This document shows positions 4,982-47,012 of a stretch of 64,000 nt of DNA, one piece after another. The stretch comes from an uncultured Candidatus Saccharibacteria bacterium (lineage in GTDB: Bacteria > Patescibacteriota > Minisyncoccia > Phycocordibacterales > UBA9973): the NCBI GenBank assembly GCA_964484005.1, contig CAZADR010000001.1:43927-107926 (forward strand), in the 5' to 3' direction. A model generated the notes under the pieces. That model did no database searches, was not told the origin of the DNA, and saw only the letters and a program-made list of their open reading frames with translations. Made by a program: the position numbers and the translations under genes. Each line of letters starts with the position of its first letter. Position 1 is the first letter of the stretch.

Positions 4982-5392
4982 CTACAAATTTTCTTCTTCC
5001 TCTTCTTTTACCATCTCTTTTATTTTTTTTACTTTACTTTTGTATTCTGAAACCATTTTTAGAAACTTACTGACTTCTCTTTTTGTTTCATTTTCAACAA
5101 CATTCTTTTTATTGTATGTGTTCTTTATTTTAAACTTCAATTCTTCGTATTTATTCTTTAAGACATTGTTTATTCTGAAGTATATCCTTATTGATCCTAC
5201 TAAACCTGCATACCCGTATTTTTTAAAGTTCTTAACAGTTGAATGTTTCCATTCGTCAAAAAAATGATGGGGGATAAAGGTGTCCTCTGTTTGGTTTAAA
5301 ATTACCCCATTTTGGATTAAGAAGAACTTTCTTCCTATCATAAATGTGATTCCAGAGAGAGATACAAAAAATAAAATTAAAAGTATGTACAT
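4982..5392 (-). CDS. Hypothetical membrane protein with a K/E-rich C-terminus
   Basis: ORF with one N-terminal transmembrane helix. No motif recognised. Confidence 0.35.
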   Translation of the reverse strand: MYILLILFFVSLSGITFMIGRKFFLIQNGVILNQTEDTFIPHHFFDEWKHSTVKNFKKYGYAGLVGSIRIYFRINNVLKNKYEELKFKIKNTYNKKNVVENETKREVSKFLKMVSEYKSKVKKIKEMVKEEEEENL

Positions 5393-7012: not shown

Positions 7013-8272
7013 ATGAGACAATCAAAACTTTTTACTAAAACAAGGAAAGAGATACCAGCAGACGAGACGTCCAAGAATGCAGAGTTCCTTATTCGAGCTG
7101 GTTTTATACACAAGGAGATGGCTGGGGTATATAGCTATTTGCCGTTGGGTTTGAGGGTCATAAAGAAAATCGAAAACATAATAAGGGAAGAAATGAATGC
7201 TATCGGAGGCATAGAAATGAAAACAGCAGCTTTTCAAAGTAAAGAAGTATGGGAAAAGTCTAATCGTTGGGATGATGAAGTGGTAGATGTATGGTTTAAA
7301 ACAAAATTAAAAAATGGCGGAGAGATAGGTTTGTCGTTTACCAACGAGGAAGCATATTCAAATATTTTAAAACAATATATAAGTTCTTATAAAGATTTAC
7401 CAATTTACCCATACGATTTTAAAGATATTTTTAGAAACGAGGCAAGGAGCAAATCTGGGATAATGAGAGGAAGAGAGTTTTATTGGAAAGCCATGTACTC
7501 TTTTTCTAAAGATGAAAATGAACACAATGATTTTTACGAAAAATCAAAAATAGCTTATAGTAATATTTTTAAGCGTGCAGGAATTGGTCATATAACTTAT
7601 ATTACTTTTGCTTCTGGTGGAAGTTTTTCAAAGTTTTCTCATGAATTTCAGACCATAACTTCAGTCGGAGAAGATACTATTTATTTAGATGAAAGTACGG
7701 GCTTAGCTATAAACAAAGAAGTTTTAAACGATGAAGTTTTAGAGTCATTAAATATTAAAAGAGAAAACTTAGTTGAGCAAAAAGCTGTGGAAGTAGGAAA
7801 CATCTTTTCGCTTGGAACAAAGTTTTCTGAGCCTTTTGATTTGAAATATAAAAATGAAAATGGTGAAGAAAAATTAGTGATAATGGGTAGCTATGGTATA
7901 GGCCTTAGTCGGCTCATGGGAACAATAGTAGAAGCTTTGTCTGACGACAAAGGAATCATTTGGCCAGAAACAGTCGCTCCTTTTAAAGTACACTTATTGG
8001 CTTTAGGAGATAGTGAAAAAGTAAAAGAAGAAGCCAAAAAAATGTATCTTGAGTTTGATAAAAAAAATATAGAAGTTCTTTTTGATGATAGGGTGGAAAT
8101 GTCGGCTGGAGAAAAATTTGCCGATGCTGATTTACTTGGAATGCCGTATCGAGTAGTCGTTTCTGAAAGAAGTATGAAAGAAGGTGGATTTGAAATAAAA
8201 AAAAGAAATGAAGAAAAAGGAAAAGTTGTCTCTCAGGATGAATTATTAACGATACTAAAACCGAAAGCATAA
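7013..8272 (+). CDS. proS: Prolyl-tRNA synthetase, short form lacking an editing insertion
   Basis: N-terminus KLFTKTRKEIPADETSKNAEFLIRAGFIHKEMAGVYSYLPLGLRV matches the ProRS motif-1 region. A C-terminal anticodon-binding-like domain is present. 419 aa. Confidence 0.8.
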   Translation: MRQSKLFTKTRKEIPADETSKNAEFLIRAGFIHKEMAGVYSYLPLGLRVIKKIENIIREEMNAIGGIEMKTAAFQSKEVWEKSNRWDDEVVDVWFKTKLKNGGEIGLSFTNEEAYSNILKQYISSYKDLPIYPYDFKDIFRNEARSKSGIMRGREFYWKAMYSFSKDENEHNDFYEKSKIAYSNIFKRAGIGHITYITFASGGSFSKFSHEFQTITSVGEDTIYLDESTGLAINKEVLNDEVLESLNIKRENLVEQKAVEVGNIFSLGTKFSEPFDLKYKNENGEEKLVIMGSYGIGLSRLMGTIVEALSDDKGIIWPETVAPFKVHLLALGDSEKVKEEAKKMYLEFDKKNIEVLFDDRVEMSAGEKFADADLLGMPYRVVVSERSMKEGGFEIKKRNEEKGKVVSQDELLTILKPKA

Positions 8273-15906: not shown

Positions 15907-16020
15907 AAAACATATTTTTGTATCACGAATAGCAGGTTGAACGTCCAAAAACACGGAAAGTAATGATATTTTAACCCCCGTGGGTCGTGATATGGTGCAA
16001 AACTGTGGTATAATATAAAA

Positions 16021-16380
16021 ATGGAAAAAGATGACGAAGTTGAATTACCTACGATTAATTGGCTTCCTCCTGATACCCCTCTGCAACAAACGATCGGAGA
16101 AAGTCGCATAGCGGACGCTTGTCAATATTGTAACTCTAAAAATTTCGTCAAGCGGGGCACTCGCCAGAATCAATATCAAAGTGTCCAGCTTTATTTGTGC
16201 AAAAATGAAGAATGTGGTCGCACTTTTACCGCACAAGACGTGAAAGGCAAACATTTTCCGTTGAATGTGGTGATTGAGGCTATGAGTTATTATAATCTTG
16301 GATTTTCATTAGAAGAAACTTGTAGGATTATAAAAAAGAAATTCAACGTAGCTCCGGATGCTGCGACTCTTGGAAGCTGA
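16021..16380 (+). CDS. Zinc-ribbon plus HTH protein with IS1 InsA-like architecture
   Basis: CQYC-x16-LYLCKNEEC zinc ribbon followed by a helix-turn-helix (VIEAMSYYNLGFSLEETCRII). GC content is about 45% against about 30% in the flanks. It ends at a TGA that is in frame with the next ORF. Confidence 0.55.
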   Translation: MEKDDEVELPTINWLPPDTPLQQTIGESRIADACQYCNSKNFVKRGTRQNQYQSVQLYLCKNEECGRTFTAQDVKGKHFPLNVVIEAMSYYNLGFSLEETCRIIKKKFNVAPDAATLGS

Positions 16381-16416
16381 GTAGACGAATACAAAGAACT
16401 TTGTCGCTATGAACGT

Positions 16417-17283
16417 TTGCGTCCATATGCAATAAAAATGTGCCAGCCAAAAGATACGATTGAAGTCGTCTCTATGGCGCATCGGCAACTTTACCGTTTT
16501 CGTTATCATCGTCCGAAAACCGCCCTAATGTTGACGGAATTTAAAAATCGCAACCTTCGTCGTTTGCAAGAATATTTGAACGCGGTTTCGAGTGAGACAC
16601 CGCACCAATATTTTCAGGACGGTGAGCGCATGAGCGATGTGCGGAGTAAGTTTAGCACCGCAGATATGATTGTAAAATCAAAAAATAATTATGCGAATCG
16701 ATTGGCAAAATTCGTCTTGCAGACGGTTTCTGAAAATAAGGCTCGCCATGAGGCGCTCCAGCGGTTTTTTATTGCGAATGATTCCTGTACGGTGGCGACG
16801 GAAGTGCCGGTGTATATCAGGAGAGAAGATGTGGAACATATGGAAAACGTGCTGAAGTTTAAGGTTGTCGGAGAGAGTGGACTTGAGTTTAAAGGGAAAA
16901 AAGAGGGACAGCTGCCAAAAGGCAATTCAACATCGGCAGCTCTACGCAGCCTACCTCGGCTGCTAACTGGACACATTGATCTTGTGCAGATAAGGAATGG
17001 TCAAGTTCACATTATGGATTACAAGCCGAATGCGGCTAAAGAGCGCCCCATCGAACAGCTCACATGGTATGCGTTAGCGCTTTCACGCCTCACCGGTCTG
17101 CGGCTTTTTGAATTCACTTGCGCCTGGTTTGATGAAAAAGATTATTACCAATTTTTTCCGTTGCATGTGGTAAAAAAATTGCAAACTAAAGCAATAAAAC
17201 CACGGAAGCGTATAATAAACTTTAAAGATGGCACTAAAGTCGAGGTACCGAGGGAAAATCCGGGGAAAGTCATAATTGTTTAA
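16417..17283 (+). CDS. RecB/Cas4-like PD-(D/E)xK nuclease-domain protein
   Basis: The C-terminal half carries GHIDLV (D), MDYK (D-x-K) and QLTWYALAL (QxxxY), in the order typical of RecB-family nuclease domains. It shares a frame with 16021-16380, separated by a single TGA. GC is elevated. Confidence 0.5.
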   Translation: MRPYAIKMCQPKDTIEVVSMAHRQLYRFRYHRPKTALMLTEFKNRNLRRLQEYLNAVSSETPHQYFQDGERMSDVRSKFSTADMIVKSKNNYANRLAKFVLQTVSENKARHEALQRFFIANDSCTVATEVPVYIRREDVEHMENVLKFKVVGESGLEFKGKKEGQLPKGNSTSAALRSLPRLLTGHIDLVQIRNGQVHIMDYKPNAAKERPIEQLTWYALALSRLTGLRLFEFTCAWFDEKDYYQFFPLHVVKKLQTKAIKPRKRIINFKDGTKVEVPRENPGKVIIV

Positions 17284-17818
17284 TTTTATGGATAAAAAAT
17301 GGGATAAAACAAAAAATGAATATGTAGGAGGGTATAAACCATCGGGTAGTTTTGGTAGCGGGAGTTACAAAAAATCGTTTACGCCAAAACGTCCAGTCAA
17401 AACTTTTCGCGATTTGGATGTCTACCAAGGAACCGTGGAATGTTCAGTTTTGATTACAAAAAATATTGCCCCCGCTCTCATCAAGTTGAAATATGCTTAC
17501 GGAGAGCGCTTGAGTGATTGTGCACTCGCCGTTCCGCTTTTCATTGCCGAATCGCACTCGCTCCGTTTTGCAGATTTTGCGCTCGGTGTCGGTTATTTGG
17601 AAAAAGCAATGTCGGCATCGAATAAAATGGTCGTGTATTTGGAACATGCCAAAGGAATTTACGGCGCCAAACTCGACCAAAACCTGATTGAAGATATTAT
17701 CGGGAGGTATGTGAGCTGTCGCATAAAAATGTTTCATTTGGAAAAATCTTGGAAGCGTTTTCGGACAGAATACGGCGACGAGAAAAAGGAAAAAGGAGCA
17801 GGCGGATTTAAATACTAG
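17276..17818 (+). CDS. Four-helix-bundle protein (23S rRNA intervening-sequence protein / Avd-like family) with a G/S/K-rich N-terminal extension
   Basis: FRDLDVYQ...AESHSLRFADFALGVGYLEKAM...YLEHAKGIYG fits the TIGR02436 pattern (FRDL-V-WQ). Confidence 0.55.
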   Translation: MFNFMDKKWDKTKNEYVGGYKPSGSFGSGSYKKSFTPKRPVKTFRDLDVYQGTVECSVLITKNIAPALIKLKYAYGERLSDCALAVPLFIAESHSLRFADFALGVGYLEKAMSASNKMVVYLEHAKGIYGAKLDQNLIEDIIGRYVSCRIKMFHLEKSWKRFRTEYGDEKKEKGAGGFKY

Positions 17819-17829
17819 TTGATTTATTT

Positions 17830-19305
17830 ATGAAGCAAAAATCAATTGTTTTTACCCCAACTTTGTTTTACGAATATGCGATTTGTCCACACTGGATTTG
17901 GCACGATCGTTTCAGCGATCCGAAAGAAAAAGGCGAAATGCCCGAGCTATCTTTGCGGTTGTTTGAACAAGGTGTACTGCACGAAAAAGATTATATAAAA
18001 GACCTGATATTTACTCAAGTTAAAGCAGTTAATTTGAAGGTGGCGTTTACACAGACTATGAGCTTAATGCAAGCAGGTGCAGAGCTCATATATCAAGGAG
18101 TTATCCAATTTGAACAAGATGGCATTTTATATCAAGGCCGTCCCGATTTACTTAAAAAAGTATCGGGAAAATCTAAATTTGGAGATTACTATTACCAACC
18201 GATAGATATTAAATCAACAAAAGAGATAAAAACTGAACATGAATATCAGTTAATTTTTTACGGATTAGTTTTAAAACATGTTCAAGGAATATTCCCCAAT
18301 GAAGCAGCTATTATTAATAAAGATAAAAAAACTGTTTTGTTTTCAATGAGTGAGGAAGAACAACGAAAAACAATAGGGCATATGAAAGAAATTATAGCTG
18401 TTTTAGAGGGTAATAAACCACTCTTGAAATTGGTTTCCAGTTGCAAAGACAGCCCTTGGTATAAAAAATGCGTGTCTGAAGCGGAAGCCAAGAATGACAT
18501 TGCTTTACTATATCATTTGGACTCTCGAGCTTATCCAACCTTACGCGCTTATGGCATTAACACGGTAGCGGAAGCAGCTAATATGGATATTGCCACGCTC
18601 CCTAAAATTCCGTATGCTAGTCGGGAAACCTTGGAGAGAGTCAAGTTGCAAGCAGAGAGCCTTTTGGAAAACAAACTTAAGTGGATAGCCAAACCAGTAT
18701 TATCTAACGCCAAGTTGAAAATCTTTTTTGATATTGAAGGCGATCCACTATTGCAGACTCAATATATGTTTGGTTTTTGGATTTCTGGCGATCCAGAGTT
18801 TAAATATGCTCAAATTGGTCACGTTCGGAAACATAAAGACGAAGGTAAATACTTTCTATACTTTTTAGCCGAAGACCCAAGCGAAGAAGAAATGATGTGG
18901 AAACAATTTTTACAATGGCTGGATATTTTACCTAATGATGATTACGCAATATTTCACTATGCCAAATATGAAAAAATATGGACCCAAAAACTGAAGGAAA
19001 AATATGGCGGGTCCAAAAAGTTCACAGAGTTTCATTCAAAACTATTTGACCTAGAAGATGCACGCAAAGAATCAGTTATCTTTCCTCTTTATTTTTATTC
19101 CATTAAAGACATCGCTAAGTCAAAATTTGTCAATTTTAAGTGGCGACATGAGAAAGCAGGTGGCGCTCAGAGCATCTTTTGGTATGAAAAGTGGTTGGAA
19201 GAAGTGAATTGTGATGTTCTTAATGATATAATTGATTACAATGAAGATGACGTCAGAGCGACCGAGTTTTTCTATCTTTGGTTAAAAAACTATTGCATTT
19301 TTTGA
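17830..19305 (+). CDS. RecB-family nuclease of the TM0106 type with a C-terminal RNase-H-like (YprB-like) domain
   Basis: N-terminal Cys motif YEYAICPHWIWHD. GRPDLL (D), IDIKS (D-x-K) and QLIFYGLVL (QxxxY). The C-terminal FFDIEGDP segment resembles an RNase-H-fold exonuclease motif. Confidence 0.6.
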   Translation: MKQKSIVFTPTLFYEYAICPHWIWHDRFSDPKEKGEMPELSLRLFEQGVLHEKDYIKDLIFTQVKAVNLKVAFTQTMSLMQAGAELIYQGVIQFEQDGILYQGRPDLLKKVSGKSKFGDYYYQPIDIKSTKEIKTEHEYQLIFYGLVLKHVQGIFPNEAAIINKDKKTVLFSMSEEEQRKTIGHMKEIIAVLEGNKPLLKLVSSCKDSPWYKKCVSEAEAKNDIALLYHLDSRAYPTLRAYGINTVAEAANMDIATLPKIPYASRETLERVKLQAESLLENKLKWIAKPVLSNAKLKIFFDIEGDPLLQTQYMFGFWISGDPEFKYAQIGHVRKHKDEGKYFLYFLAEDPSEEEMMWKQFLQWLDILPNDDYAIFHYAKYEKIWTQKLKEKYGGSKKFTEFHSKLFDLEDARKESVIFPLYFYSIKDIAKSKFVNFKWRHEKAGGAQSIFWYEKWLEEVNCDVLNDIIDYNEDDVRATEFFYLWLKNYCIF

Positions 19306-21257: not shown

Positions 21258-21295
21258 AAAATCCCCCACTTTTGGTAGGGGATTTTCGTTTTTTA
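21258..21295 (+). terminator. Rho-independent terminator
   Basis: aatccccc-acttttggta-ggggatt followed by ttcgtttttt. Confidence 0.5.
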
Positions 21296-21297
21296 CA

Positions 21298-21709
21298 GGT
21301 ATCTATAAGCCGAATTTTGTATTTAATGCCAAAGCATTATAGATAGCAATTTATCTAGGCCTGAAATTGCTCTCAGGCTCAAGCGATTCTCCCCCACACC
21401 TTTCGGAATGATGCGCATTTGCGCGTTGCTTTTAGCAACTTCATTCTGAAAGGTGTGGGGGCACGATCTTGCACAGAGGTAAGGGTTTAGCCGTTTCACC
21501 CTTCGACTTCGCTCAGGGCAAGCCCTAAGTTTATATGAAGATTTATCCATTTCTGGATACCCTAACCCTTTCGAGTTAAGACGTCTCTGCTCGCACCTAT
21601 GTATCACTACATACGGGGGTTACCCGCTACCATTCCCATCTCTTTCGAGACTCGCTGTGTTCGGACTTTCCTCTATATAGCTTGCGCCATATAGTAGCTA
21701 TCCGATACC
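21298..21709 (-). ncRNA. rnpB: RNase P RNA, bacterial type A, with an extended perfect hairpin insertion
   Basis: The minus strand carries AGGAAAGTCCGAAC (P4 5' strand), AGCGGGTAACCCCCG, AAGGGTGAAACGGC, GCTTGAG and GCAATTTCAGGCCTAGATAAATTGC (the CCUAGAUGAAUG region), and ACAAAATTCGGCTTA (P4 3' strand). A P1 pairing ggtatc/gatacc joins the ends. Confidence 0.8.
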
Positions 21710-21816
21710 TGCAAGGGTATTATACAACGCTTGCTTTATTTATTCAAGTATGATATACTATGTTTGTGAGTGTGAGGTTGTTCTCACATTTTTAAATAGA
21801 CAACATAAGTGCCGCA

Positions 21817-30041: not shown

Positions 30042-30201
30042 AATAAGCTGTATCTTAACATTTTGGGCTTAAAAAATATACTGAAATTGGGTTTCTGGCA
30101 AAATCTCAAAAAATTGCAATAAGACAAGAGTAATTATATAATTATTGGATAACTTAATAAGAAAGACCTAAACCCTGTGGATGGCCTTAAAACTATAGGA
30201 T

Positions 30202-30316
30202 ATGGTCGCAAAGTCGGATCACGCATAAAGAACCCATCGCAGGGTTGCGTGATCCGCCATATCGGGAAACCGGTATGAGAGGTTTCGGCCTCTACCTGTG
30301 GTGGGCTTTTTGTTTT
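30202..30316 (+). ncRNA. Candidate structured RNA element A (unknown family), ending in a U-tract 12 nt before the ATG at 30328
   Basis: Nested hairpins ggatcacgc/gcgtgatcc and aaccc/gggtt, a GAAA-tetraloop hairpin cgg-gaaa-ccg, and agagg/cctct, followed by gggctttttgtttt. It is homologous to element B at 37884-37999, with compensatory substitutions in each stem. Confidence 0.35.
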
Positions 30317-37578: not shown

Positions 37579-37883
37579 TTCTAGATTGTATTACAAAAAG
37601 TTCTAAAATCCCACCATTTTTCAGATGAGTATATTCGGTGTATCCTCTTTCATTTGGGTGTCCTCCCCCCGTACCCCTTATCAAATAAGAATATTACTAA
37701 TAGTAAATATTAAAATATAGATGTCGTAATGTAAGCTGTATTTGCTTATAGAAAGGCTATAACAACCTCTTTAATGGTCTATAAACACGCTATAAACCCT
37801 TATTGATGGTAAATTTATAGAAAGGTGCTATTATTGTTTTATAACTTAATATAAGAGTAGCCTAAACTTTTGTAGACAAAAGC

Positions 37884-37999
37884 ATGGTGAACGAAGTCAG
37901 GTAATGCATAAAAAACCCTTCATGGGGTCGCATTACCTGCCGTACAGGGAAACTTGTATGAGAGACTTAGGTCTCTACCCGTGAGGGGCTTTTTGTTTG
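37884..37999 (+). ncRNA. Candidate structured RNA element B, homolog of element A
   Basis: Same architecture as A with covarying stems: aggtaatgc/gcattacct, cagg-gaaa-cttg, agagac/gtctct, then gggctttttgtttg. Confidence 0.35.
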
Positions 38000-44097: not shown

Positions 44098-44634
44098 ATG
44101 GAGAATTTTAAATTTATTCTTGGATCAATGATAGTTTTAGCTGTGATTGGATTGGGGGGCTATTGGGCTATAACCTCAATGCAGACTGGTAATGAATATG
44201 TAAGTACTCAAAAGATAGAAGATTTAGAAGACAAAAATGAAGAGCTAGAAAAAGAAGTTCGAAGACTTAAAAATGAGCTTAGTGCTTTGCAGCCAGAAGT
44301 GGTAGCAGAAGAAGAGAAAGAGCCACAAAAAGAAGAACCAACTCCAAAACCAGTGGAGACAGCTTACAAGCATCAGGTATTAATTGGTGAGTTGCAAGAG
44401 TTGATAGATGACAATATATTTCTAAAATTAAAATCAGCTGGTACCAGAGTCGGAACTGTGCAGAATTTTCTAAATATATATAATAAGACTTCAAATAGGG
44501 TAGATAATGATTACGGCGCAAGTACCAAGACTGCAGTAGCCGCTTTTCAAAAAGCACAGGGCTTGACCGCGGACGGGGAAGCAGGACCTGGGACATTTAA
44601 AAAGATGATTGAGTGGCTTAAAAAACAAGGCTAA
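44098..44634 (+). CDS. Membrane-anchored coiled-coil protein with a C-terminal peptidoglycan-binding domain (PG_binding_1)
   Basis: TVQNFLNIYNK...DNDYGASTKTAVAAFQKAQGLTADGEAGPGT. Confidence 0.65.
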   Translation: MENFKFILGSMIVLAVIGLGGYWAITSMQTGNEYVSTQKIEDLEDKNEELEKEVRRLKNELSALQPEVVAEEEKEPQKEEPTPKPVETAYKHQVLIGELQELIDDNIFLKLKSAGTRVGTVQNFLNIYNKTSNRVDNDYGASTKTAVAAFQKAQGLTADGEAGPGTFKKMIEWLKKQG

Positions 44635-44638
44635 ATTT

Positions 44639-45040
44639 ATGTTAAAAGATTTTAAGCAATTTTTACTTAGAGGAAATGTGGTTGATCTGGCTGTCGGTGT
44701 GGTCATCGGTGCTGCTTTTGGTACTGTGGTCTCTGCTTTGGTTTCCGACCTACTTACTCCTTTAATATCAGCTATTGCAAAAGTACCTGACTTTTCAGGA
44801 TTTTTTGTGACTATTAATGATAGTAAGTTTATGATTGGGCATTTTATTAATGCTTTGATTTCTTTTGTATTAGTTGCAGCGGCTGTATTCTTCTTTGTAG
44901 TAAAGCCGATGAATCTATTAGTTGAACATTCTCGCAAAGGACCACCAGCTGATCCAACTACTAAAAAATGTAAAGAATGTCTAAGTGAGATTCCGATTGA
45001 AGCCAAGAGATGTTCACATTGCACTCAATTAGTTTCTTAA
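44639..45040 (+). CDS. mscL: Large-conductance mechanosensitive channel MscL with a C-terminal CxxC...CxxC zinc-ribbon extension
   Basis: MLKDFKQFLLRGNVVDLAVGVVIGAAFG is the MscL N-terminal signature. The C-terminus is KKCKECLSEIPIEAKRCSHC. Confidence 0.85.
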   Translation: MLKDFKQFLLRGNVVDLAVGVVIGAAFGTVVSALVSDLLTPLISAIAKVPDFSGFFVTINDSKFMIGHFINALISFVLVAAAVFFFVVKPMNLLVEHSRKGPPADPTTKKCKECLSEIPIEAKRCSHCTQLVS

Positions 45041-45078: not shown

Positions 45079-45837
45079 CTACCTCATCCCTGTGCATTGA
45101 TTTGGAAAATAAACTTCTTTTGGTGCTTGTATCTCCCAGAAAAGAGGAGGTTGTTCGCATATTTCTATGCGGTAAACTGATACTGTCCGTCCGTCTTTGT
45201 TCTCCTCATATTTGTGATGGAAAACAGACAAACCTTTTGGTTTTTTTACACGAATACAGTTTTGTTTCTGTTTCTGAAGTTTTGGTAATTTCTCCAGCCA
45301 GCTTTGCAAGAGCTCTTGCTGTTCTTCGTTTGGCGGAGGGCCCAGCTTGCTCTTGAATCTAGAATTGGGACCTTGCAGGGTAAAGCTCACTGATTCCGCA
45401 AAATCGCCAGCTCCGGTGCTGAAATCGGTGTGCCTAGATTCTGGGTACCAGGGTGTGTACGGAGACAGGTTCCTAACAGAGAGCCACTTTGCTCTTAGTT
45501 CTGGAGTCAGGTACGTGTAGTCGAAGGCATGCGCCAATTCATGCACCATAGTGGCTGCGACCTGAGAAGGAGAGTGTTCTGGACGAATCCAAATTGTAAT
45601 ACTCTTTGCTTCTCCGGGGTTAGTCATCCCCAGGTAACCCTTCCTACCAGGAGCAAAAATTACTTCCTTCCATCCTTCCGGGCGCCAAACGAGACGTACC
45701 TCTTTTGTGGCCAGGTTTCCAAGTTCCTGGTGAGCATGTGTCTTTCCTTTTGAATCTTTCCAGGGTTCAGCCGGAGAGGAAGATAGAGCAAACAGCAATA
45801 GAATAGTTGTCAAAGTACCAAGGATTGCTCGTCGCAT
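45079..45837 (-). CDS. Secreted HExxH zinc-metallopeptidase-like protein, GC-elevated (about 48%)
   Basis: Signal peptide. MVHELAHAFDY is the HExxH motif. Confidence 0.5.
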   Translation of the reverse strand: MRRAILGTLTTILLLFALSSSPAEPWKDSKGKTHAHQELGNLATKEVRLVWRPEGWKEVIFAPGRKGYLGMTNPGEAKSITIWIRPEHSPSQVAATMVHELAHAFDYTYLTPELRAKWLSVRNLSPYTPWYPESRHTDFSTGAGDFAESVSFTLQGPNSRFKSKLGPPPNEEQQELLQSWLEKLPKLQKQKQNCIRVKKPKGLSVFHHKYEENKDGRTVSVYRIEICEQPPLFWEIQAPKEVYFPNQCTGMR

Positions 45838-46400: not shown

Positions 46401-47012
46401 TCAGTAAGAGCCGAATCCCGGACGAGACGGGCTCTTGTAGAGGACGCCGTGGTCGCCGGTGCCGGAGTCGTTGTAGACTTCCAGCAATACGACGAACTCA
46501 CCCCAGATGGCGGGACCGATGACGACGCCGTCGGCACCGACCCAGTTGCCGCTGATCAGAGTTGCGTCGGCCGGGGCTGCGACGATCTTGACGAAGTAGT
46601 TCCACTTCGCCGTCTTGCCGTCGGTATCTTCGTACTCGCCTTTCGTGTGGTTCGTGAGCCAGGCGCCGGAGCCGATGTACGAAGGATAACCGTAATGCCG
46701 GTCTAGCTTGTTGTCGCTGTCACAGTCCTTGTTGGACAGCCACGCGCTATTCCACTTCATCACCAGGTTGTCGTTCGCGTATGCTTGGCACCAGGCGGCG
46801 TTGCGATAGGCGTCACAGTAAGTGCCGTTGAACATCATGGCCTGGTAGTTGTATCCCCACTGGTCGTAACCAGTGGTGATGACGTTACCGGCGCCGTCGA
46901 GGATGATGTCATCCTGGATGGTGGCACATGTCTGTGCCGACGCCGTGGTCGCAGTGTTGAACACCAACAACACGAATAACGATAAGACAAAGAACTTCAA
47001 GAACTTTTTCAT
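46401..47012 (-). CDS. Secreted protein of unknown function encoded by a strongly GC-rich gene (about 60% GC) with an AT-rich signal-peptide segment; uses a TGA stop
   Basis: Signal peptide MKKFLKFFVLSLFVLLVFNTATTASA. The mature part is rich in G/Y/W/N/D. No family recognised. Composition is sharply different from the host. Confidence 0.55.
   Translation of the reverse strand: MKKFLKFFVLSLFVLLVFNTATTASAQTCATIQDDIILDGAGNVITTGYDQWGYNYQAMMFNGTYCDAYRNAAWCQAYANDNLVMKWNSAWLSNKDCDSDNKLDRHYGYPSYIGSGAWLTNHTKGEYEDTDGKTAKWNYFVKIVAAPADATLISGNWVGADGVVIGPAIWGEFVVLLEVYNDSGTGDHGVLYKSPSRPGFGSY

Follow-up and report, generated by a model that had tools for sequence, protein, structure and literature searches.

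An in-frame TGA at an invariant tryptophan codon of a conserved zinc-ribbon/HTH/nuclease gene: a probable recent nonsense allele

In the InsA/InsAB' arrangement of IS1, a zinc-finger/HTH ORF is fused to a catalytic ORF by programmed -1 frameshifting. UGA is a stop codon that tRNA-Trp(CCA) misreads.

Full reassignment of UGA to Trp has been described in the family JAKLIH01 (Patescibacteriota, class Minisyncoccia, order UBA6257), where UGA makes up 0% of stops, 150-303 Pfam columns support Trp, RF2 is lacking, and 2/4 genomes have a tRNA-UCA (Fakih et al. 2026, PMC13092985). Among Minisyncoccia with the standard code and a retained RF2, UGA stops fall as low as 3.9-4.6%, with UAG commoner than UGA (PMC13092985). 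In Candidatus Providencia siddallii, PSAC has an intermediate code and strains PSOF and PSLP carry 'readthrough' genes (Manzano-Marin et al. 2023, PMC10540940). PSOF and PSLP keep the CCA anticodon in tRNA-Trp and have RF2; in strains with RF2, UGG has changed to UGA in ~1.4% of genes, which the authors interpret as readthrough (PMC10540940). Here we compare these systems with a locus in which a single TGA separates two ORFs in a 64,000-nt stretch of DNA (the window).

The interrupted gene and its homologues

On the forward strand of the window, a 119-aa ORF (16021-16380) is terminated by TGA at 16378-16380 and followed after 36 nt by a 288-aa ORF (16417-17283). Given that their starts are 396 nt (132 codons) apart, the two share a reading frame, and this TGA is the sole stop between ATG 16021 and the TAA at 17281-17283; the sequence and the ORF list bear out the original prediction on each of these points. 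Translation through the TGA gives an unbroken 420-aa protein that matches 1868 proteins. The fused translation aligns with single proteins at E = 1e-237 over 92-100% of length, so the layout is not a chance juxtaposition. The best 120 of these matches are single proteins of 387-666 aa with 65-88% identity, and Trp occupies the position of the TGA in 120/120 of them. The homologues are thus single fused proteins with Trp rather than Gly at the site, one of the outcomes that had been envisaged. At the DNA level, TGG is found in all 54 species-level relatives covering the site, and TGA solely in the five contigs of this strain. None of these relatives (120 proteins, 54 loci) has a stop or frameshift at the position, and tblastn against 56 loci returned one continuous match per locus. 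Because Trp is present in 120/120 proteins and TGG in 54/54 relatives, we infer that TGG>TGA is a lineage-specific transition; by homology, the two ORFs are parts of one ancestral gene. Homologues made of two genes with their own starts, which would have told against a single gene, were not found among these relatives, and the candidate second starts TTG 16417 and ATG 16438 align with conserved internal codons, Leu133 and Met140. The features of the locus are collected in Table 1.

Table 1. Features of the interrupted gene and its surroundings (window coordinates).
Feature	Position	Strand	Evidence or detail
Promoter-like site (GTGATA, 16-nt spacer, TG-TATAAT), ends 6 nt before ATG 16021	15987..16014	+	Consensus scan, 10/12 matches, extended -10 TG
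Zinc-ribbon/HTH/Cas4-RecB-like PD-(D/E)xK nuclease gene, 420 codons, one nonsense codon	16021..17283	+	Homologue alignments
Four-cysteine zinc ribbon, aa 34-71 (C34, C37, C60, C65)	16120..16233	+	NCBIfam NF050000 IS1/IS1595 N-terminal Zn-binding domain, E = 3.5e-6; four Cys invariant in alignment
Three-helix transposase-like HTH, ~aa 74-129; TGA within third helix	16240..16407	+	Domain matches aa 74-129 and aa 90-123, plus predicted helix 3
TGA in place of Trp120 codon (TGG>TGA, G>A transition)	16378..16380	+	Context GGA AGC TGA GTA GAC
36-nt 'gap' between ORFs, ordinary coding sequence VDEYKELCRYER, kept in all homologues	16381..16416	+	Alignment columns 231-243
PD-(D/E)xK core, Cas4/RecB type; GHID aa 317-320, DYK aa 333-335, QLTWY aa 346-350	16738..17160	+	
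Conserved partner gene, 176 aa, ATG 4 nt after nuclease TAA	17288..17818	+	Directly downstream of nuclease homologue in 49/56 loci, 37-87% identity

The contigs indicate that the TGA is reproducible and real and no product of misassembly. Five contigs from independent assemblies match the window with 100.000% identity over 2.6-6.4 kb that include the site. Their sources are ENA assemblies ERZ27247817, ERZ27247820 and ERZ27247830 plus the Logan assemblies of runs ERR3094293 and ERR3094296. Ten contigs carry the exact 119-aa product, and gene callers annotate the second ORF as 269 or 281 aa. A sequencing or assembly artefact could produce such a one-base departure from the expected TGG, and all of the evidence is from metagenome assemblies, probably of one study; still, with the same base in five contigs from two assembly pipelines and several runs, identical over kilobases, and with the exact product recurring, we regard an artefact as extremely unlikely. 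A scan of JGI metagenome contigs with a 37-mer carrying R at the variable base found no TGG allele of the same strain, and among 5.8 billion protein clusters there was no intact allele at >=90% identity, the top match being 88%.

The gene family is widely conserved across Parcubacteria (Minisyncoccia), with 65-88% identity across class-level lineages, on par with core genes. Core-like conservation of this kind is odd for a dispensable gene, and we counted it against reading the TGA as a plain nonsense allele. In two relatives, however, the gene is independently disrupted, by a TAG at the invariant Ser205 (L032) and by a frameshift (L049), so it seems dispensable. Some MAGs have two copies of the nuclease gene, and accessory genes are inserted beside it in relatives.

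The interrupted copy shows no decay beyond the TGA, with no additional stop or frameshift and no surplus of substitutions at conserved sites. At 142 near-invariant columns it differs uniquely once, against 0-4 times in intact homologues, and relative-rate counts reveal no acceleration (4-7 window-unique changes vs 2-18 in relatives). Such a pristine copy fits a very recent mutation, but full expression or retained function of the gene would explain it just as well. The lack of relaxed constraint and of rate acceleration, together with the unusual rarity of TGA stops described below, were further points that we counted against a nonsense allele.

Protein domains, recoding signals and expression context

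The fused product had been predicted to join a zinc ribbon, an HTH and a PD-(D/E)xK nuclease, and matches to NF050000, to HTH domains and to PF12705 support this. The PF12705 match covers aa 280-357 and scores 26.3 bits (E = 8.9e-6), above the curated threshold of 22. D320, D333, K335, Q346 and Y350, which make up the catalytic D...(D/E)xK and QxxxY motifs, are invariant in the alignment, and the fold of the nuclease is similar to that of solved RecB/Cas4-like members of the PD-(D/E)xK group. A PDB sequence search with the family profile returned nothing meaningful, and the nuclease has no PHROG match. It is not a bona fide Cas4: only C367 is invariant in the C-terminal domain and there are no cas genes nearby. 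The structure model used is that of an intact homologue (P0002), built with 106 sequences; a first model, built with 24 sequences and X at the stop, was set aside at pLDDT 54. In the retained model, the position of the TGA lies within the third HTH helix, not in a linker or at a domain boundary.

We found no sign that the stop is part of a recoding device. The stop context contains no slippery run, the RNA between 16360 and 16480 folds no better than shuffled sequence (z = 0.05), and no Rfam family matches at the site. Given that the stop is not conserved in any relative, has no cis signal and lies within the HTH instead of at a domain boundary, we find programmed recoding unsupported, both by stop readthrough and by a mechanism like that of InsA/InsAB', which the original prediction had raised. 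Selenocysteine recoding is rejected; the column holds Trp, not Cys or Sec, and there is no structure beyond that of shuffled sequences. Unprogrammed, leaky reading of the UGA by tRNA-Trp is possible.

The promoter-like site ends so close to ATG 16021 that it suggests a leaderless or near-leaderless mRNA, and many other genes of the window have TATAAT just upstream of ATG without a Shine-Dalgarno sequence. No Shine-Dalgarno precedes any candidate restart after the TGA, which is a weak test because the genome is mostly without them. Directly downstream, the partner gene is probably co-transcribed and translationally coupled with the nuclease, judging from the 4-nt spacing between the two. Its 176-aa protein has no Pfam, NCBIfam, PADLOC or PHROG match. 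GC3 of the nuclease and partner genes is 0.41-0.42, the highest among native-looking genes (~0.28). Nuclease and partner together form a very widespread, very conserved Parcubacterial two-gene module.

TGA usage and the genetic code of the host

Among window ORFs of at least 100 aa, 44 end in TAA, 11 in TAG and four in TGA. One of the four (44491-45024, minus strand) is spurious, lying antisense over a PG-binding gene and an MscL gene, so the real TGA ends are those of ORF 16021-16380, the 17830 gene and the GC-rich 46401 gene; these stop counts agree with the original prediction, which had called TGA very rare and named the same three. Across ~93 kb (the window and ~29 kb of flanks), TGA ends 2 of ~77 genes and is rarer than TAG, whereas it makes up ~25% of stops in the relatives' loci (Fisher p = 0.002 to 1e-5 vs host). 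This depletion is not diagnostic, since standard-code Minisyncoccia that retain RF2 reach the similarly low values cited above. In the same ~93 kb, there is one in-frame TGA at a sense position vs ~285 TGG Trp codons. The nuclease gene is the only one in the window that a TGA splits, the ~29 kb of flanks have none, and the rpoB, rpoC, dnaE, dnaG and aaRS genes of the host in this region have no in-frame TGA.

The two TGA-ended genes may both be foreign. In the neighbouring TM0106 nuclease gene, TGA coincides with the C-terminus of the homologue and appears to be a true stop; L006, the closest relative, lacks this gene at its syntenic locus. The gene at 46401-47012 has a GC3 of 0.80 and is clearly foreign. 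The window contains no GGQ release-factor gene, and the tRNAs seen in the window and in the flanks reached by way of window proteins and the host RpoB are those for Thr, Ala and Asn only, with no tRNA-Trp; an RF2 gene was found in relative L017. We reject code 4 or code 25 for the window as a whole, as no other gene merges across a TGA. Code 25 (UGA=Gly) is rejected at the site itself, where the column is invariant Trp and the closest relatives have TGG.

Origin of the TGA codon and comparison with known systems

We favor, as the probable explanation, a very recent nonsense allele, null or hypomorphic, in a dispensable gene: a mutational accident and neither a programmed device nor a change of code. 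Of the three readings in the original prediction, recent inactivation is the best supported. A G>A transition changed the TGG of the invariant Trp120 to TGA in one clonal population of uncultured Candidatus Nomurabacteria, and the allele would be very young. Its main product would be the 119-aa fragment with a truncated HTH, which would make the allele null or strongly hypomorphic. Since UGA, which tRNA-Trp(CCA) misreads, has taken the place of a Trp codon, any leaky readthrough would restore the precise wild-type protein, at a low level. The coupled partner gene may also be expressed less because of the early termination.

The gene could instead be fully functional if UGA is efficiently decoded as Trp, through an incipient table-4 code or tolerated readthrough; native genes would have shed their UGA stops, RF2 would be weak or lost or tRNA-Trp altered, and the first UGG>UGA changes would be neutral. 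In favor of this, the TGA lies exactly at an invariant Trp in an otherwise pristine ORF, and TGA stops are much commoner in relatives. Moreover, because TGA ends only 2 of ~77 genes, fewer than TAG, with one of the two clearly foreign and the other missing from the L006 locus, we allow a small chance of such incipient decoding. There are also precedents in JAKLIH01 (PMC13092985) and Providencia siddallii (PMC10540940). We nonetheless think efficient decoding unlikely, given the single TGA against so many TGG codons, none of it in the core genes listed above, the TGA of the TM0106 gene at the C-terminus of its homologue, and the similarly sparse UGA stops of RF2-retaining, standard-code Minisyncoccia; the independent TAG and frameshift in relatives' copies favor simple loss. 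More doubtful still is that the host stands at a pre-reassignment stage of UGA-to-Trp capture, with UGA stops nearly purged, UGA read by tRNA-Trp frequently enough for UGG>UGA to be tolerated at an invariant Trp, and the nuclease gene holding the first captured codon. If true, Patescibacteria would have a second, independent case beside JAKLIH01, a transitional one comparable to PSOF/PSLP of Providencia siddallii.

A functional split gene, with a 119-aa zinc-ribbon fragment and a nuclease fragment restarted at TTG16417, ATG16438 or ATG16474, would be in keeping with the intact sequence downstream of the TGA, with the second ORF that callers do annotate, and with a mostly Shine-Dalgarno-less genome in which the lack of such a site does not exclude restart. 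Yet the break falls within the third HTH helix rather than a linker, the proposed starts align with internal Leu and Met codons that are conserved, 0 homologues are split there (best 120 proteins, 54 loci), and a consensus scan finds no good promoter-like site just upstream; we judge it very unlikely. A relic of horizontal transfer from a donor in which TGA is a sense codon, under code 25 (Gly) or code 4 (Trp, e.g. JAKLIH01-like), is slightly less credible again. The raised GC3 of nuclease and partner is compatible with horizontal arrival, and a UGA=Trp lineage is known in the same class. The code-25 donor of the original prediction is nevertheless excluded by a conserved Trp, not Gly, and by TGG in the closest relatives. 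For either code, the module has TGA at only 1/6 of its Trp codons, TGG is present in 54/54 relatives, the closest (88% identity) among them, and no homologue with multiple TGA codons occurs among the relatives' loci examined.

A plain nonsense allele would be of little importance beyond an annotation warning, that the two called ORFs (119 aa and 269 or 281 aa) are one gene; the conserved two-gene module and the near-avoidance of TGA stops by the host are the more useful side results. Should the whole genome reveal further UGG>UGA sites or loss of RF2, it would give an uncommon view of stop-codon capture at its earliest step, in a CPR bacterium of free-living type.

Like IS1, the locus encodes an IS1/IS1595-type N-terminal zinc ribbon and HTH followed by a catalytic domain, and in this one strain the short N-terminal product would predominate. 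Unlike InsA/InsAB', the family is a single ORF everywhere, with no slippery A-run and no frameshift; its catalytic domain is PD-(D/E)xK, not DDE, and the stop falls within the HTH, not after it. Compared with Cas4/RecB PD-(D/E)xK nucleases (PF12705; e.g. PDB 4r5q, 4ic1 and AddAB nuclease domains), the protein lacks the conserved four-cysteine Fe-S cluster, carries a fused transposase-like zinc ribbon/HTH, has an uncharacterised 176-aa protein as its partner, and lies in no CRISPR context.

The host shares with JAKLIH01 its bacterial class and UAA-dominated stops with little or no UGA, but differs in having one sense-position TGA and UGA at the end of two genes; its RpoB places it as a Nomurabacterium. 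The likeness to Providencia siddallii lies in a UGG>UGA change at a conserved Trp of an otherwise intact gene in an AT-rich, reduced genome, and in the share of genes affected, ~1.3% in the host (1 of ~77) vs 1.3-1.5%. There, however, at least nine genes carry the change, essential ones among them, and species share some of the sites, whereas the host has one gene in ~93 kb, probably dispensable, at a site common to no relative. Set beside an ordinary nonsense (unitary) pseudogene or hypomorph, the locus is unusual in its lack of secondary decay, its unusually conserved family and a host nearly without TGA stops. It resembles such an allele in that one transition has placed a stop, in one lineage only, where every relative has a sense codon, and in that the same gene has been independently disrupted elsewhere.

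The interruption and its distribution

Two ORFs that share a frame, 16021-16380 (119 aa) and 16417-17283 (288 aa), lie 36 nt apart, and the TGA at 16378-16380 that terminates the first is the sole stop between the ATG at 16021 and the TAA at 17281-17283; on this point the sequence and the mechanical ORF list bear out the original prediction. Read through, 16021-17283 encodes an uninterrupted protein of 420 aa with three recognizable domains (see table); PADLOC also returned a Cas4-like match for the nuclease. We searched 5.8 billion protein clusters (database clustered at 90%) and obtained 1868 matches. The best 120 of these 1868 come from Parcubacteria/Minisyncoccia MAGs, e.g. Nomura-, Kaiser-, Zambryski-, Sungii-, Yanofsky- and Moranbacteria; every one is a single protein (387-666 aa) that aligns to 92-100% of the fused query at 65-88% identity, and all 120 have Trp in the TGA column (alignments of 24 and 121 sequences). 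None is split into a pair of genes that each have a start; the TTG at 16417, the "start" of the second ORF, is the codon of near-invariant Leu133, and the ATG at 16438 chosen by gene callers is that of near-invariant Met140. At the DNA level, we fetched 56 species-level loci; the site is TGG in all 54 that cover it, and TGA is confined to contigs of the window's own strain. Because the homologues are fused proteins with Trp and the relatives carry TGG, the event is a TGG>TGA transition in a single lineage.

A GIY-YIG (PF01541) or Hint/intein (PF14890) domain is present in some longer homologues of 530-670 aa (P0087, P0054, P0046, P0068, P0069, P0094, P0099), so in some lineages inteins or homing endonucleases target the gene.

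There are 10 recorded contigs with the identical 119-aa product. We fetched five of these, from ENA assemblies ERZ27247817, ERZ27247820 and ERZ27247830 and Logan assemblies of runs ERR3094293 and ERR3094296; across 2.6-6.4 kb, TGA included, each matches the window at 100.000% identity. The TGA is therefore a fixed trait of a clonal population and not an assembly error, and an artefact is scarcely credible. The top full-length protein match is just 88% identical; neither the protein clusters nor the JGI metagenomes yielded an intact allele of this strain, the latter in a degenerate 37-mer scan that gave no match.

Both HTH profile matches extend across the TGA position. In a model of the intact homologue P0002, W105, the equivalent of the Trp at the TGA, lies in helix 99-108, the third of the bundle; the 1-119 product would thus miss half of the probable recognition helix. 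The stop context, GGA AGC TGA GTA GAC, contains no slippery run, the RNA that surrounds and follows the stop is folded no more stably than shuffled sequence (z = 0.05), and no Rfam family matches at the site. The candidate restart codons of the second ORF have no recognizable signal. Most genes in this genome lack a Shine-Dalgarno sequence, and in many TATAAT precedes the ATG by only 5-10 nt (for example at 16009-16014 and ahead of 44098, 49852, 57592 and 58926), suggesting that leaderless mRNAs are widespread; the promoter-like site of the nuclease gene, GTGATA-16-TG-TATAAT, ends 6 nt before its ATG.

Stop usage and the genetic code

When TAA and TAG were the sole stops in translation, no substantial ORFs merged in the window apart from the nuclease pair, and none in ~29 kb of flanks reached through window proteins and the genome's own RpoB. 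The flanks include rpoB, rpoC, dnaG, dnaE and RNase R, all terminated by TAA or TAG and free of internal TGA. At Trp positions in window and flanks, we counted 1 TGA versus ~285 TGG. The TM0106-family nuclease gene ends in a TGA just where the family profile ends, at most 2-3 residues from the C-terminus of the homologue at the L026 locus. Since this TGA appears to mark a natural end and no other substantial ORFs in the window and these flanks merge across a TGA, a full code-4 genome is excluded; so too is code 25, the residue at the TGA being Trp and not Gly.

Among window ORFs of at least 100 aa, 44 end in TAA, 11 in TAG and 4 in TGA. One of the last (44491-45024, minus strand) is spurious, lying antisense over the PG-binding and MscL genes; with it set aside, the TGA-terminated genes originally listed are the right ones. 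TGA is indeed rare as a stop: across ~93 kb (window 1-64000 and flank contigs L062:10475-20474, L064:1188-11187 and L066:1-9164), it terminates 2 of ~77 genes, fewer than TAG (~13). These are a high-GC gene that is plainly foreign and the TM0106 nuclease gene, which the closest relative, L006, lacks at its syntenic locus; both look foreign or accessory. In relatives' loci, TGA makes up about a quarter of stops (69/243 overall; 11/46 where GC is <40%) and ends 21/54 of their own nuclease genes (Fisher p 0.007 to 1e-5 for its scarcity here). In Minisyncoccia with the standard code, published UGA shares of stops run from 3.9% to 27%. Because relatives with the standard code and RF2 go down to 3.9-4.6%, with UAG > UGA (table in PMC13092985), the depletion is not diagnostic.

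By its RpoB, 90-94% identical to many named Nomurabacteria, the host is a Candidatus Nomurabacteria. No release-factor gene lies within the window; in one relative, Minisyncoccia Co_bin_102, the nuclease homologue is followed, ~2.5 kb downstream, by a gene for RF2 (L017:~7200-8100) that has the SPF and GGQ motifs.

A probably accessory module and its surroundings

The nuclease gene and the 176-aa gene downstream (16021-17818) form a two-gene module in 49/56 loci from many Parcubacteria lineages, at 65-88% identity. Their GC3 of 0.41-0.42, versus ~0.28, is the highest among native-looking genes. The nuclease gene is disrupted independently elsewhere, by a TAG at invariant Ser205 in a Nomurabacteria MAG from Lake Pavin (L032:1493) and, in a Yanofskybacteria MAG (L049:~5011-5071), by a frameshift at about residue 375; two MAGs carry two copies each. 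Inserts of 0.6-1 kb separate the gene from its partner in several relatives (L007:4432-5285, L008, L015, L021, L022, L023, L025) and carry accessory genes, judged from sequence to encode Bro-N-like proteins of 268-276 aa (near-identical in four MAGs), MazF/PemK-like or NYN-like proteins; the position resembles a hot spot for insertion. Together these features suggest that the module is accessory and perhaps horizontally exchanged, so that occasional loss would be unremarkable.

The partner's conserved part opens with FRDLDVYQ, reminiscent of the "23S rRNA intervening sequence protein"/Avd family of four-helix bundles; no profile match to that family was found. A fibre-like protein gene with a Peptidase_S74 (endosialidase chaperone) domain lies near the module in 25 loci, mostly upstream. 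The window's own copy, within a 42-44% GC stretch at ~12-18 kb, resembles a phage tail fibre yet its context is chromosomal. Directly after the module lies the TM0106 nuclease gene; at L006 an ornithine/arginine decarboxylase gene follows instead, and a possible frameshift splits the alignment of the L026 homologue between two frames. The Trp-rich product of the high-GC gene has a putative signal peptide and no Pfam, PADLOC or PHROG match; the gene seems to have arrived recently by horizontal transfer from a high-GC donor.

Features of the interrupted protein, the window and its left flank
Feature	Location	Strand	Remarks
Zinc ribbon, IS1/IS1595-type, four-cysteine	aa 34-71		NCBIfam NF050000
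HTH, transposase-like	aa 74-129; aa 90-123		Profile matches: IS6 N-terminal stretch; DUF4817
PD-(D/E)xK nuclease domain	aa 280-357		PF12705, above gathering threshold
Fibre-like protein, 1333 aa	11905-15906	+	Collagen-like G-x-y stretch; Peptidase_S74 aa 1078-1131; Pro/Thr-rich tail
TM0106-family RecB-like nuclease	17830-19305	+	TIGR03491, E = 5e-87; Cas4-like + RNase H-like domain
RNase P RNA class A	21290-21713	-	Rfam gathering-level match
LOOT RNA motif, copy 1	30165-30293	+	Rfam gathering-level match
LOOT RNA motif, copy 2	37859-37976	+	Rfam gathering-level match
Neighbour gene	45079-45837	-	GC3 0.43, raised; AAGGAGG, only strong Shine-Dalgarno in window
High-GC gene, 203 aa, TGA-ended	46401-47012	-	GC 57%, GC3 0.80 vs 35% GC genome
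IS200-type Y1 transposase gene	L066:7980-8636		Directly upstream of rpoB, left of window, same genome

Explanations for the stop

We see no decay in the interrupted copy, which differs privately (P35Q) at one of 142 invariant or near-invariant columns (121 sequences), versus 0-4 private changes in intact homologues; relative-rate counts give 4-7 private changes at well-conserved columns versus 2-18 in seven close relatives, with no excess downstream of the stop. The mutation arose very recently, or else selection still acts on the gene. We favor a very young lineage-specific nonsense allele as the probable explanation: TGG>TGA would have hit a conserved but dispensable nuclease gene, leaving a null or strongly hypomorphic allele. 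UGA is a leaky stop that tRNA-Trp can misread, and misreading at any level would restore the wild-type protein. Of the three readings in the original prediction, the recently inactivated pseudogene is thus the best supported.

Efficient decoding of UGA as Trp in a UGA-poor genome has a precedent in JAKLIH01, a Minisyncoccia family in order UBA6257 that is reported to have UGA=Trp, 0% UGA stops, no RF2 and tRNA-UCA in 2/4 genomes (PMC13092985); we hold such decoding unlikely here, given that RF2-retaining standard-code relatives reach similarly low UGA usage and that the site is the only TGA at a Trp position in the ~93 kb, and its stricter version, a genuine pre-reassignment stage, is more doubtful still. 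That the gene works as a split pair is highly unlikely, with conserved internal codons as the starts of the second ORF and the stop inside the HTH, and a relic from a donor that reads TGA as sense is very improbable; its code-25 version, raised in the original prediction, fails on the conserved Trp.

The other suggestion, programmed readthrough following the logic of IS1 InsA/InsAB', we reject: slippery run, RNA structure and Rfam match are all absent, and in contrast to the designed two-product layout of IS1, the stop here cuts into the HTH, which argues against such an arrangement. The nearest analogue for a state of tolerated readthrough is Providencia siddallii, where 9 intact genes per genome carry UGG>UGA with RF2 present (PMC10540940), a further precedent for decoding UGA as Trp.
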